Shown piece after piece: positions 3,669 through 31,732 of a DNA stretch of 33,351 nt. Positions within the stretch are counted from its first letter, which is position 1; each line of letters opens with the position of its first letter. Source of the DNA: Bacteroidales bacterium. GTDB lineage: Bacteria; Bacteroidota; Bacteroidia; Bacteroidales; JAADGE01. The stretch is from NCBI GenBank assembly GCA_029932445.1, contig JAOZQB010000002.1:1-33351 (forward strand), given 5' to 3'. Position numbers and translations under genes: made by a program. Below the pieces are notes generated by a model that was not told where the DNA came from, did not search any database, and saw only the letters and a list, made by a program, of their open reading frames with translations.

Positions 3669-5006
3669 TTATAAATTCCTAACCGCTTCTTTAAATAAGC
3701 GTCCTCTTTCTTCATAATTTTTAAATAAATCAAAACTTGCACATGCGGGAGAAAGCAAAACGGTATCACCCTCATCAGCCAAATGATATGCTGTTTTTAC
3801 GGCTGTTTCCATTGAATTGGTATCATATACGGGAACAATGTCCGTAAAGGCGTTTAAAATCGGTTTGTTATCAATTCCCAAAGCAACGATTGCCTTAACT
3901 TTTCGTCGGACTAAATCTTTTAATGTTCCGTATTCATTACCTTTATCCTTTCCGCCCATAATTAAAACAATCTTTTCATCTACGGTTTGTAAGGCATACC
4001 AAACAGAATTTACATTGGTTGCTTTACTGTCATTAATAAAAAGAACATTCCTAATTTTTAAATATTTTTCAAGCCGATGTTCCACACCCGTAAAATTTGA
4101 TAAGCTGGTTTTTAATTGCTTATCGGAAATATTATTCAGCATTGCCGTAATACCTGCAGCCATAGAATTGTATTCATTATGATCGCCTTCAAGTGCTAAT
4201 AATCCGTTTTCCATCGTAAATTGTTTAGTGTTTATGTCAATTATAATTTTATCCTTTTTTCTGTATGCTCCCTGCTTCAATGTTTTTTTTATTGAAAAAG
4301 GAAATTGTTTTGCTTTTATCAATCGTTTTGCAATTTCTGAAGTTATCACATCATCATCGTCGCAGTATATAAAAGCATCCGTTTCCGTTTGATTTTGAAT
4401 AATTTTAAATTTTGATGCAATGTAATTTTCAAATTTATTTTCGTAGCGATCTAAATGGTCGGGCGTAATATTCAGAAGAATTGCAATATCTGCTTTAAAA
4501 TCCTTCATTCCGTCCAGCTGAAAACTGCTTAATTCAACAACGTAAACATCAAAATTTTTCTCTGCCACCTGAAGCGCTAATGAATTTCCGACATTTCCGG
4601 CAAGCCCTACATGCATTCCTGCATTTTTTAAAATATGATAAGTCAGTTCGGTTGTTGTTGTCTTACCGTTACTTCCCGTAATACAAATCATTTTCGCGTC
4701 GGTATATCTTCCGGCAAATTCAATTTCCGAAATCACGGGAATATTTTGCAATTTTGCATTGTTAATGATTTCTGCCGTATCAGGAATTCCGGGACTTTTA
4801 ATAATAACATCGGCATTCAGAATGTGTTCTTCGCTGTGTCCGTTCTCTTCAAAAGAAATTTTATTGTTCGTTAATATTTTCTTATAATTTTCTTTTATCA
4901 TTCCTTTATCGGAAACAAAAACATCAAAATTCTGCTTTAAAGCCAGAATTGCTGCTCCTGTTCCGCTTTCGCCTGCTCCGAGTATGACTGCTTTTTGTTT
5001 ATTCAT
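3669..5006 (-). CDS. murD: UDP-N-acetylmuramoylalanine--D-glutamate ligase MurD
   Basis: 445 aa. N-terminal Rossmann motif ILGAGESGTGAA and Mur ligase P-loop ITGSNGKTTT. dcw position. Confidence 0.9.
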   Translation of the reverse strand: MNKQKAVILGAGESGTGAAILALKQNFDVFVSDKGMIKENYKKILTNNKISFEENGHSEEHILNADVIIKSPGIPDTAEIINNAKLQNIPVISEIEFAGRYTDAKMICITGSNGKTTTTELTYHILKNAGMHVGLAGNVGNSLALQVAEKNFDVYVVELSSFQLDGMKDFKADIAILLNITPDHLDRYENKFENYIASKFKIIQNQTETDAFIYCDDDDVITSEIAKRLIKAKQFPFSIKKTLKQGAYRKKDKIIIDINTKQFTMENGLLALEGDHNEYNSMAAGITAMLNNISDKQLKTSLSNFTGVEHRLEKYLKIRNVLFINDSKATNVNSVWYALQTVDEKIVLIMGGKDKGNEYGTLKDLVRRKVKAIVALGIDNKPILNAFTDIVPVYDTNSMETAVKTAYHLADEGDTVLLSPACASFDLFKNYEERGRLFKEAVRNL

Positions 5007-29384: not shown

Positions 29385-30093
29385 TAATTCTTATTCAATT
29401 TTAAATAAAATAACTGTCGGCATATTATTATTGTGCTTTTCCGTGTTCGGTTTCGGTCAAACCAAAAAAGCTGTTTTAAATAAAATCAAACCGCCATATA
29501 ATATTAAAGATTATTATTTGTTATTACCTGACAGTTTGCTTGACGGACCCGACTTCAATCAACGAATGATTTCTTTGAGATACAAAAATATTGATGACTT
29601 ATGGAAGCATAAAGGATATTGGCAAATTGATACCCTCGATTACAAAAACGGTTATTTAAAACTTTCATCAACAGGTGACGGATCGGGAACCGAATTTGAA
29701 ATAACATATTTTATTAAAAAAGACAAATCACGTGAAATTGCCGTTAATACAATCTATTGGGATTTGGCAATGATTTCTTCTTCTCTGAAATTTTATTCTT
29801 TTGAAAATAATACATGGAAAAATATTACAAAAAAAGTGTTGCCTGAAATTAAGCTTTCCTTTTTTACAAATGAAGCTTTTGCGAAAATTATTACATCTCA
29901 TACAACAACTTCACCTGTTTTATACAAACTTCCGCAAAAAGGAAAAAATATTACGGCAAAAATCGACATCGGTACAATTGATAATTTATTAGATGAAAAC
30001 GCAGTCGATGAAGACGAATATTTACAGATTAAAAAATCACTTAAACAAATTTTACTTATTTGGAACAACGGTATTTTTAAACTTCAAAAATAG
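29374..30093 (+). CDS. secreted hypothetical protein
   Basis: 239 aa with signal peptide (ITVGILLLCFSVFGFG/Q). The ATG overlaps the sensor gene's 3' end by 11 nt (ATGGCAAATAA). No family recognised. Confidence 0.55.
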   Translation: MANNNSYSILNKITVGILLLCFSVFGFGQTKKAVLNKIKPPYNIKDYYLLLPDSLLDGPDFNQRMISLRYKNIDDLWKHKGYWQIDTLDYKNGYLKLSSTGDGSGTEFEITYFIKKDKSREIAVNTIYWDLAMISSSLKFYSFENNTWKNITKKVLPEIKLSFFTNEAFAKIITSHTTTSPVLYKLPQKGKNITAKIDIGTIDNLLDENAVDEDEYLQIKKSLKQILLIWNNGIFKLQK

Positions 30094-30211
30094 AATATTT
30101 TGATTATCTGACAGTTAACAGGTGTCCGAACAAAAACCTTCAAAGCTTTTTCATTTCTTAATAAAATTCTTGTAAATTTACATAGGGTAAAACCTGTTTC
30201 AAGTATCTTAG

Positions 30212-30403
30212 TAATAACCTGAGTTCGATATAAGAAATGAATAACAGAATGCAAATACGGAGTGAGATTTTGAGGAAAAATTGTGAAGTAATAACGGGTT
30301 ATTTTAAAGAATTTTTCCTTAAAAGATTACTTTGTATTTGCATTCCCTTTGGGCTTTTTGAAATTATGCTGTTAACATTTCTTATATCGAACTCAGGTTA
30401 ATA
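30212..30403 (+). repeat. ~190-nt near-perfect hairpin / long imperfect palindrome (candidate structured RNA or MITE-like element)
   Basis: Hand-paired. 25 contiguous Watson-Crick bp (30215-30239 with 30376-30400). Then 6 bp (30242-30247 / 30369-30374) and 11 bp (30248-30258 / 30334-30344). A 24-nt one-sided bulge (30345-30368). Then 24 positions (30259-30282 / 30310-30333) with 18 WC pairs, 4 G-U pairs and 2 mismatches. Apical AATAA/TTATT stem (30290-30294 / 30299-30303). Confidence 0.8.
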
Positions 30404-30436
30404 AACAAGTTTTTTATTCATCTAAAAAAATGTATC

Positions 30437-31732
30437 ATGAAAAATCTAAGATTTATAAAACCGACATTATTGTTGTTTGTTTTCATTTTTTTCGGATTTA
30501 CCGGAAATTCAGAAAATAATCTGAAAAATTCAAACACAATTTCATATCAAGAAACGAATGTTATTATCAGCGGAAAAATTGTTGATGCTAAAACAAATCA
30601 ACCGATTGCATTTGTATCCGTAACCGCAACCGGAACAAATATCGGAACTGTTTCAAACACCGACGGTGAATTTACACTGAAATTTGAAAAAAGTTTAAAT
30701 GTAAAATCATTGACTTTTAAATATATCGGGTATCAAAATAAAGTTGTAGAAATAAGTTCTGTTCCTGAAAAAAAATTCAAAATTAAGCTGAATCCATTCG
30801 TAATTTCGATTGAAGAAGTCGTAATTCGACCTAATGATCCTAAAGAGTTAATACAAGAAATTTTAAACAGAATTCCTCAAAATTACAGTGAGAAAGCCAA
30901 TAAGGAGATGGCTTTTTACAGAGAATATATTAAAAATAAGAGAAAATATGTTTCAATTTCAGAAGCTGTTGTTGAAATTTACAAAGCACCTTATAATAAA
31001 GAATATAGTTATGATTTGGTAAAATTATATAAAGGTCATAAAAGCGCTAAAGTAAAAGCTCAAGACACCATAATAATGAAATTGAAAGGCGGTCCTAAAA
31101 CAGCTCTGCTGCTTGATATCGCAAAAAATCCGTACATCCTGTTTTCCGATGAGAAATTGGAAGATTACGACTTCACATTAAAGGATATAACAAATATTGA
31201 TAATCAACAAAATTACATCTTGATTTTTCAACAAAAACCAAATCCGGAACAGGCTCTTTTTAACGGGAAAATTTACGTAAACATTAAAACATTAGCCATA
31301 ACGGCGGCAGAATTTAGTCTTAACTTAGAGAATATTTCCGAAGCGAGTAAAGTATTTATAAGAAAAAAACCTTTGTTCCTGAAAATCAGACCGACAAATA
31401 CAAAATATCTTGTTAATTATACGGAAAATAACGGGAAATATTATTTTTCACACGCACGAGGAGAAGTAGAATTTGAAGTTAAATGGAAAAGAAAACTGTT
31501 TAAATCACATTACTCCGTTATGACAGAAATTGCAATAACCGACAGAAGCGATAAAAACGTACAAAAAATACCGAAAAATCAACAACTGAAAGCCGGAATC
31601 GTTTTTGACGAAAAAGTATATCCGTTTTCAGACACTGATTTTTGGGGAAAATATAATACGATTAAACCTGAAGAATCAATCCAAAGAACAATAAAAAAAT
31701 ATGGTTTTAAATTAAAAATTCAAGATAATTAA
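30437..31732 (+). CDS. CarboxypepD_reg-like domain protein (secreted), C-terminal part unassigned
   Basis: 431 aa with signal peptide. ISGKIVDAKTNQPIAFVSVTATGTNIGTVSNTDGEFTL is a typical carboxypeptidase-regulatory-like fold signature. No TonB-dependent barrel follows. Confidence 0.7.
   Translation: MKNLRFIKPTLLLFVFIFFGFTGNSENNLKNSNTISYQETNVIISGKIVDAKTNQPIAFVSVTATGTNIGTVSNTDGEFTLKFEKSLNVKSLTFKYIGYQNKVVEISSVPEKKFKIKLNPFVISIEEVVIRPNDPKELIQEILNRIPQNYSEKANKEMAFYREYIKNKRKYVSISEAVVEIYKAPYNKEYSYDLVKLYKGHKSAKVKAQDTIIMKLKGGPKTALLLDIAKNPYILFSDEKLEDYDFTLKDITNIDNQQNYILIFQQKPNPEQALFNGKIYVNIKTLAITAAEFSLNLENISEASKVFIRKKPLFLKIRPTNTKYLVNYTENNGKYYFSHARGEVEFEVKWKRKLFKSHYSVMTEIAITDRSDKNVQKIPKNQQLKAGIVFDEKVYPFSDTDFWGKYNTIKPEESIQRTIKKYGFKLKIQDN

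Follow-up and report, generated by a model that had tools for sequence, protein, structure and literature searches.

The subject of this report is a long fold-back at positions 30212 to 30403 of a 33,351-nt stretch of DNA from a Bacteroidales bacterium (contig JAOZQB010000002.1 of assembly GCA_029932445.1); this whole 33-kb stretch is referred to as the window, and coordinates without a locus label are window positions. The fold-back lies in a 343-nt intergenic spacer, upstream of a cluster composed of a gene for a 431-aa CarboxypepD_reg-like protein and of extracytoplasmic function (ECF) sigma and FecR genes. We conclude with high confidence that the hairpin is a MITE (miniature inverted-repeat transposable element) derived from the IS982 family of insertion sequences (ISs), which inserted recently into this spacer and is internally deleted. 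Insertion of such a MITE is an ordinary kind of event and IS982-derived MITEs have already been published, to which the present case adds a new family or member. The target-site duplications (TSDs), terminal inverted repeats (TIRs), small open reading frame (ORF) and other parts of the element are listed here, followed by a conserved block that lies outside it.

30212 to 30216 (no strand): left TSD, TAATA, read from the sequence; a single (T)AATA at the empty sites of four relatives (L131, L132, L133, L135).
30217 to 30398 (plus strand): MITE of 182 bp, ACC...GGT, an 81-bp-deleted form of a 261-263-bp family, delimited by long copies and by the four empty sites.
30217 to 30247 (plus strand): left TIR, with core ACCTGAGTTCGATATAAGAAATG (30217-30239), then a 2-nt gap and TAACAG; equal to the IS982 left end.
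30247 to 30345 (plus strand): inner hairpin of about 100 nt with 42 consensus pairs and an apical loop near 30293-30297; kept in every family copy.
30346 to 30359 (plus strand): small CC(C)-loop-GG(G) hairpin, then CTTTTT, with a weak terminator likeness; TTCCCT..GGGCTTT is invariant across copies.
30363 to 30371 (no strand): deletion junction, where 81 bp of the long form are missing between its short direct repeats ATTATGCT and ATTAAGCT; placed by comparison with the long copy L123.
30369 to 30398 (minus strand): right TIR (CTGTTAACATTTCTTATATCGAACTCAGGT), from the sequence and from comparison with the long copy.
30399 to 30403 (no strand): right TSD, TAATA, read from the sequence.
30237 to 30401 (plus strand): ORF of 54 codons that starts at an ATG within the left TIR; the long copies have 59-64 codons, and the frame is open in 6 of 7 distinct copies.
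30171 to 30191 (plus strand): conserved block TGTAAATTTACATAGGGTAAA with a 12-bp palindrome, TGTAAATTTACA, outside the MITE; the 21-mer occurs once in the window.

All of the hairpin details that had been listed in an earlier reading made from the letters alone (the sequence-only reading) are present. The segment 30376-30400 is the exact reverse complement of 30215-30239 (TAACCTGAGTTCGATATAAGAAATG) and forms with it a 25-bp basal stem, to which TAACAG/CTGTTA contributes six further pairs beyond an internal loop of 1-2 nt. A one-sided 24-nt bulge occupies 30345-30368, the inner arms contain four G-T positions (30259/30333, 30260/30332, 30264/30328 and 30272/30320) and two mismatches, and a T run at 30410-30415 stands 10 nt off the stem. 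The 24-mer arm of the stem occurs twice in the window, both times in the fold-back. Folded as plus-strand RNA, 30205-30410 has a minimum free energy of -88.3 kcal/mol, against -34.2 +/- 3.7 for shuffled sequences (z -14.6; 0 of 200 shuffles as good), while the minus strand reaches -69.2 kcal/mol (z -12.3). The stability of the hairpin is far above chance level, with the plus strand ahead of the minus by about 19 kcal/mol. The claim that the structure is not an intrinsic terminator was upheld by a consensus scan of 29900-30700, which detected no terminator and promoter-like sites only at chance level, and by the distance of the T run from the stem; the small internal CC(C)/GG(G) hairpin that precedes CTTTTT has just 2-3 GC pairs. 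A comparison with Rfam, which had been proposed as a check for a known RNA, gave no family at the gathering threshold anywhere in the window. At E<=1, the segment 30050-30500 matched only plant microRNA-precursor models (18-31 bits against cutoffs of 60-211); these relaxed matches, among them MIR9486 at 30246-30345 (30.9 bits against a cutoff of 100), are generic to long hairpins and not meaningful.

Decisive evidence on the nature of the fold-back came from orthologous spacers. Relatives were found via the downstream 431-aa CarboxypepD_reg-like protein, yielding four syntenic loci (L131, L132, L133 and L135) that share the order of a PAS/GAF sensor gene, an ORF of about 230-240 aa and a 417-431-aa homologue of the downstream gene, with ECF sigma and FecR genes coming next where the contig reaches. 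The spacer is 149-156 nt long in these loci versus 343 nt in the window, and alignment revealed conserved flanks on both sides of a clean 187-nt gap (182 + 5) in each of the four. At the empty site they have ...CTTAGTAATAAACAAG..., precisely what the window would show without its extra 187 nt, and in L131, where the downstream gene product is 90% identical in amino acids to that of the window, the sequence CAAGTATCTTAGTAATAAACAAGTTTTTTATTCATC equals the window less the element and one TAATA. In the window, TAATA flanks the element (ACC at 30217 to GGT at 30398) at 30212-30216 and again at 30399-30403. The target was an AT-rich TAATA that lies 33 nt upstream of the CarboxypepD_reg-like start codon, and insertion there duplicated 5 bp. 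Because the relatives carry the empty site, the insertion is younger than the split from the closest sequenced relatives, and it is a recent strain-level polymorphism. A conserved copy in synteny, which the sequence-only reading had suggested looking for as a sign of a dedicated RNA, is precisely what these four relatives lack. The metagenome-assembled genome (MAG) GCA_024762915.1 holds both the empty site (L131) and, on another contig, a diverged long copy of the element (L031).

The identity of the basal stem emerged from the distribution of its terminus. Exact matches to the 20-mer CCTGAGTTCGATATAAGAAA, sought in a collection with a single representative genome for each species, turned up on at least 118 contigs, the carriers including Bacteroidota, Cyanobacteria (Crocosphaera, Nostoc, Geminocystis), Calditrichota, Acidobacteria, Gammaproteobacteria, Methylococcaceae, Thioploca/Marithrix, Balneolaceae and others. 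Among the matches listed, many genomes have several copies and many of the copies are near contig ends. When the loci were aligned on the 20-mer, the sequence before ACC was unrelated in every case and many distinct families followed the motif, which marks the 20-mer as the terminus of a transposable element. An IS982-type transposase gene adjoins it in at least 21 of the 118 loci listed, 19 of these at the 'left' end. The complete 1,048-bp element in L011 (4867-5914) has ACCTGAGTTCGATATAAG... at one end, ...CTTATATCGAACTCAGGT at the other and TATTA on both sides, and its 305-aa transposase matches the NCBIfam model NF033520 'IS982 family transposase' at 271 bits, where the cutoff is 130, and PF13612 at 242 bits. 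The core of the left TIR in the window is identical to the left end of such full-length IS982-family elements. A second, inverted end was present within 2.5 kb in 32 loci among the matches listed, defining elements of either 49-320 bp (MITE-like) or 995-1,261 bp (full-length IS); a perfect 5-bp duplication borders 8 of these 32, and perfect 5-bp TSDs are seen on the full-length ISs in L011, L014 and L103. The 25-bp basal stem is an IS982-family TIR pair, because the same ends bound transposase-bearing IS982 elements. An IS982-family DDE transposase supplied in trans would bind and cut the element at these TIRs of 23-31 bp. At the scale of the whole search, the IS982 left end, identical at 20 of 20 nt across several phyla (at least six), gave rise to many unrelated MITE families, of which members of 49-320 bp were recovered, and the 20-mer CCTGAGTTCGATATAAGAAA is a handy probe for IS982-ended elements.

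Several of the other elements headed by the IS982 left end may be recorded here. They include MITE families of 49 bp in L019, 67 bp in L069 and 86 bp in L024, elements of about 100 bp with 'CCGAACTC' repeats in Crocosphaera, and one family spread over at least 12 contigs of one Caldithrix MAG. The same TIR occurs with a different interior at L030 (7201-7220), in the MAG (S014) that also holds L017, L028 and L061, with neither a transposase nor a second end within 2.5 kb; it could represent another non-autonomous family of that MAG, or else a solo end.

The window element is one member of a dispersed family. It is small and has no transposase gene, measuring 182 bp as against 263 bp for the long form, with a sole ORF of 54-64 aa. 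The copies that were delimited are as follows, with nucleotide identity given relative to the long copy L123 unless stated otherwise.

L123, 3844-4106: long copy, used as reference, 99% identical to the window copy over 182 nt; it has the window's left flank and a different right flank.
L138, 152-414: 99%; TSD TAATA.
L137, from 2232: 99%; begins 7 nt past a GAF gene.
L128, 3393-3655: 91%; TSD TATTA.
L031, 3124-3385: 83%; in the MAG of empty site L131.
L017, 2137-2397: 81%; in MAG S014.
L028, 4-264: 78%; in MAG S014.
L063, 1527-1788, minus strand: 73%; TSD TAATA.

Copies that are 98-99% identical occupy at least three other sites, those of L137 and L138 and the one at the right flank of L123; the metagenomes concerned belong to one sample series and contain the window locus as well. 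Copies of about 73-92% identity are found on other contigs, including those of at least three distinct Bacteroidales MAGs, one of which (S014) has at least three (L017, L028, L061). Perfect 5-bp TSDs flank the copies in L138, L128 and L063. Dispersed copies with target-site duplications, which had been recommended as a check, were found on metagenome and MAG contigs and, of the three options that the sequence-only reading had left side by side, the MITE-like element proved correct, given the exact empty sites in relatives, the near-identical, TSD-flanked copies elsewhere and the identity of the stem with the IS982 TIR.

Comparison with the 261-263-bp long form shows that 81 bp were later deleted from the interior of the window copy, between the 8-nt near-repeats ATTATGCT and ATTAAGCT. 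The fold-back is near-continuous over 190 nt because this deletion set the inner hairpin beside the right TIR; the long copies are non-palindromic over about 110 nt of their length, and the 24-nt bulge at 30345-30368 is a remnant of that non-palindromic half. Five metagenome contigs of the window locus end inside the element (L120, L122, L124, L125 and L126), as is expected of a repeat, and these ends indicate repeat-induced assembly breaks and co-existing variants; the breaks at this locus are attributable to the insertion polymorphism of the MITE. The end of the L124 contig is the exact point at which short and long forms diverge. L123 shares the left flank of the window and the left half of the MITE, continues as the long form and then has another right flank (TAATACCTATATCC...) beside a gene with a Golvesin_C domain (region 3997-4330, which takes in the end of the long form). 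Either the assembly is chimeric through the repeat or two MITE copies have recombined, and in both cases L123 reveals one more copy in that population. A pattern search with TATTTGCWTTCCCTN{2,3}GGGCTTT in metagenome contigs gave four loci with one true new copy (L128); L127 and L129 were chance matches to the pattern, and L130 was the window locus again (same contig as L121). Within the TIRs, L128 has a matching variant at both ends, GAGCTCGAT / ATCGAGCTC in place of GAGTTCGAT / ATCGAACTC, which is a symmetric, compensated change, and L138 and L123 have a G>A variant at a single end each.

A number of observations weigh against identification of the fold-back as an IS982-derived MITE. There is no IS982 transposase in the 33-kb window, nor any further TIR. 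No full-length IS sharing the subterminal sequence or the hairpin of the MITE was found among 100 sources (99 loci plus the window) and BLAST among 130 loci recovered MITE copies only; these searches for a parental IS consisted of BLAST of the inner sequence and the long form against the fetched loci and of a covariance model of the hairpin against the 100 sources. The predicted 24-mer empty site had no exact match in JGI metagenome contigs; the identical 24-mer is present in L131, which was reached by the protein-guided look-up. The TSDs of L031 and L017 have one mismatch each, and the copy counts rest on metagenome contigs of the same population, not on a closed genome. With these points set against the empty sites, the duplications and the dispersed copies, we would label the hairpin an inserted MITE of IS982 origin, flanked by a 5-bp TSD, and not a small RNA (sRNA) or riboswitch candidate.

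The MITE is more than a pair of TIRs. Its inner hairpin (30247-30345) is present in every copy of the family, the most diverged included, and in all seven copies the plus-strand fold beats the minus-strand fold (-47.6 versus -29.4 kcal/mol in the window, -46.1 versus -24.3 in L031 and -29.6 versus -23.3 in L063). RNAalifold on six distinct copies returned 42 pairs, 11 of them with two-sided changes that keep the pair, versus 4.4 +/- 1.4 compensated pairs in shuffles (0 of 500 shuffles reach 11), and 94% of cells were paired, versus 86.4 +/- 1.1 in shuffles. In a control in which the 3' partners were slid by 1-3 columns, compensated pairs fell to 0-6 and pairing to 44-57%. The covariation check envisaged by the sequence-only reading thus came out positive, across mobile copies and not across orthologues. 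That reading had also argued from wobble pairs for a plus-strand RNA. Of the non-Watson-Crick transition pairs on the plus strand, 36 cells (14 columns) are G·T and 4 cells (3 columns) are A·C, with a binomial p of ~0.013 by column, and pairing would drop to 81% on the minus strand, so that the argument, weak for one copy, holds family-wide and agrees with the folding energies. These covariation and wobble statistics derive from six sequences only, in which common descent, and not independent change, accounts for several of the G·U columns.

The internal hairpin of the family looks selected on one strand. From the covariation and the G·U asymmetry, it would be an intrinsic module of the MITE, selected on the strand that runs from the left end into the element, and it would most likely act in RNA during read-through transcription of the element; alternatively, the structure may act as a single-stranded DNA form. 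Six of the seven copies are co-oriented with an adjacent gene, as would be expected if the plus strand were transcribed by read-through, although this is anecdotal; L137 and L128 sit 7-10 nt past a stop codon. Leader hairpins are classical devices of ISs, such as IS10 and IS50, for blocking translation of read-through transcripts. Full-length Bacteroidota IS982 copies with the same TIR have a leader hairpin of 60-80 nt (4890-4990 in L011; left ends of L014 and L106). In L011 and L106 the start codon of the transposase falls partly or wholly within the 3' arm, and in L014 the arm stops a few nt upstream of that codon; this arrangement (e.g. ...AATCCTTATG) suggests fold-back inhibition of translation. 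The inner hairpin of the MITE is equivalent in position and similar in architecture to these leaders, but no sequence homology to them was detectable, and the covariance model found no full-length IS among the 100 sources. We speculate that the inner hairpin may be a relic or an analogue of the IS982 leader hairpin. The family is a small natural test case for RNA-level selection on MITEs.

The local setting bears on what the insertion might do. At 30172-30191 the window and the four syntenic relatives all have the same sequence, GTAAATTTACATAGGGTAAA, while the surrounding spacer diverges, and the block 30171-30191 is probably an operator, promoter or other regulatory element of the CarboxypepD_reg/ECF-sigma/FecR cluster. 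The element inserted 21 nt downstream of this invariant block and 33 nt upstream of the ATG, displacing the block by 187 bp. If the block holds a promoter or operator, the MITE may be transcribed within the 5' leader, in line with the suspicion of the sequence-only reading, and a very stable structure is predicted to lie in, or just upstream of, the leader of the cluster. The locus is a case of a 190-nt hairpin dropped between a conserved block and the start codon of an ECF-sigma cluster.

The best surviving of the other explanations extends identification as a MITE and does not exclude it. It holds that the plus-strand hairpin, together with the CCC-GGG-U-run, has been exapted as an RNA module wherever the element inserts, and that it modulates the downstream cluster here; the module might terminate or attenuate read-through, be processed by RNase III or stabilise mRNA 3' ends. 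We regard exapted function as possible, though less likely than not. The compensatory changes and strand-specific G·U pairs occur in copies from different genomes, the plus-strand fold is the stronger in all seven, most copies share the orientation of a neighbouring gene as described above, and TTCCCT..GGGCTTT is invariant. There is also precedent, in that the TIRs of Correia elements are sites of RNase III cleavage and terminator activity is known for other MITEs (PMC10969869). However, the consensus scan found no terminator and the GC stem ahead of the U run comprises 2-3 pairs, the independent copies are few with many G·U columns shared by descent, and the structure could serve the element's own biology. 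A more general form of this proposal, which we consider rather doubtful at present, is that the MITE family is not a passive remnant and carries a selected, strand-specific RNA hairpin of about 100 nt, possibly overlapping a conserved ORF of about 60 codons. If this is true, transposition would carry to new places in Bacteroidales genomes either a small peptide gene or a ready-made device for regulation by RNA, such as an attenuator, a terminator or an RNase III site, and insertion at the window locus would rewire the leader of an ECF-sigma/anti-sigma cluster.

A further explanation is that the family is a tiny protein-coding mobile element, whose ORF encodes a small, basic-then-hydrophobic peptide under selection. 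The ATG at 30237 lies inside the left TIR and opens 54 codons in the window and 59-64 in L123/L138, L128, L031, L017 and L028 (3864-4058 in L123 and 3413-3607 in L128). This frame is open in all of these copies despite 8-22% nucleotide divergence, and L017 and L028, which have lost 1 nt, regain the frame by an extra nucleotide 24 nt further on. The ratio of non-synonymous to synonymous change (pN/pS) in the ORF frame was 0.30, 0.39 and 0.56 in three comparisons, the lowest of six frames (others 0.43-3.6), and third codon positions vary most. Set against this, the seventh distinct copy, L063, has three in-frame stops yet keeps its hairpin, and the conserved C-terminal LNYPDS segment is missing from the window copy. 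The product had no similarity to Pfam or to the IS982 transposase, and a homologue search in a database of 5.8 billion proteins produced just 2 clusters, the only ones in which gene callers had predicted the ORF. The substitutions are few, at 18-31 per pair, and a purine-rich 5' arm followed by a pyrimidine-rich 3' arm automatically yields a 'charged then hydrophobic' translation. We consider a selected peptide to be unlikely.

The remaining explanations fare worse. The fold-back might have been a structured, dedicated sRNA, or else a 5' leader native to the downstream CarboxypepD_reg/ECF-sigma cluster that regulates it in cis in the manner of a riboswitch or attenuator, and the sequence-only reading had entertained both an sRNA and a leader; the very stable fold, better on the strand co-oriented with both flanking genes, its placement between the conserved upstream block and the ATG, and the covariation in the inner hairpin are all compatible with such a role. 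The structure is nevertheless missing from the orthologous spacer in 4 of 4 syntenic relatives whose flanks are otherwise conserved, the same sequence occurs at unrelated loci beside unrelated genes, the basal stem is an IS982 terminus, and Rfam offered nothing beyond the sub-threshold plant models. An sRNA or native leader as the primary identity is very improbable and in practice ruled out by the empty sites. Least credible of all is a solo fold-back or drifting DNA palindrome made locally (e.g. by inverted duplication) and unrelated to transposition, which would account for the near-perfect symmetry of the 25-bp basal stem but is ruled out by the exact empty sites with a 5-bp TSD and the dispersed copies at other loci, and is at odds with the identical termini of transposase-bearing IS982 elements and with the long copies, non-palindromic over about 110 nt.

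Identification of the fold-back as an IS982-derived MITE places it beside several known systems; a literature search for the TIR sequence string found no paper. The closest in description are MITECca01/02, elements of about 240 bp bounded by the inverted repeats of ISCca4 (IS982 family) in the Cardinium endosymbiont of Oedothorax gibbosus, a member of the Bacteroidota (PMC9769881). Both they and the window family are non-autonomous, multi-copy elements of about 240-260 bp from Bacteroidota, with IS982 inverted repeats and no transposase, and both are thought to be mobilized in trans by a parental IS. MITECca01/02 have been reported from one Cardinium strain only, whereas the window family is found in metagenome contigs and at least three Bacteroidales MAGs, and apparently no internal hairpin or ORF has been described for MITECca01/02, 'hairpin' and 'secondary structure' being absent from the paper text searched (PMC9769881). 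The window family is here set against MITECca01 by description and not by sequence, and the parental IS is known for MITECca while none was identified for the window family.

The second comparison is with the IS982-family ISs themselves (IS1187 of Bacteroides fragilis, ISAba825/ISAba9 of Acinetobacter and ISCca4; NF033520). The terminus ACCTGAGTTCGATATAAG of the MITE is identical to that of the full-length elements in L011, L014, L103 and L106, and a 5-bp AT-rich duplication (TATTA or TAATA) is common to both. The window element differs in its 182 bp and lack of a transposase, compared with about 1,040 bp for IS982 elements, and its subterminal sequence is not shared with any full-length IS982 element recovered. 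Some known IS982 members can have outward promoters (PMC9330008), whereas no TAnnTTTG box of the Bacteroidetes promoter type was seen on reading the sequence of the window MITE.

Finally, MITEs of other origins offer parallels for the ORF and for the structure. As far as the references given in PMC10969869 go, Rickettsia palindromic elements, ERIC and other ORF-carrying MITEs resemble the window MITE in keeping an ORF through a hairpin; Rickettsia palindromic elements insert in-frame into host genes, whereas the putative ORF of the window MITE is self-contained and starts in the TIR. The Correia elements (CREE) of Neisseria, in which the TIR helix is an RNase III substrate (PMC10969869), the mechanism raised by the sequence-only reading, share with the window MITE a length of about 100-160 bp or more, TIRs that form a long perfect helix when transcribed, AT-rich targets and an intergenic location that is often in 5' leaders. 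Their sequences and parental families are unrelated and, while cutting by RNase III has been shown for Correia elements, for the window MITE it would be expected only by analogy. Unlike in Correia elements, the conserved, covarying structure of the window family is an internal hairpin and not the TIR helix alone.

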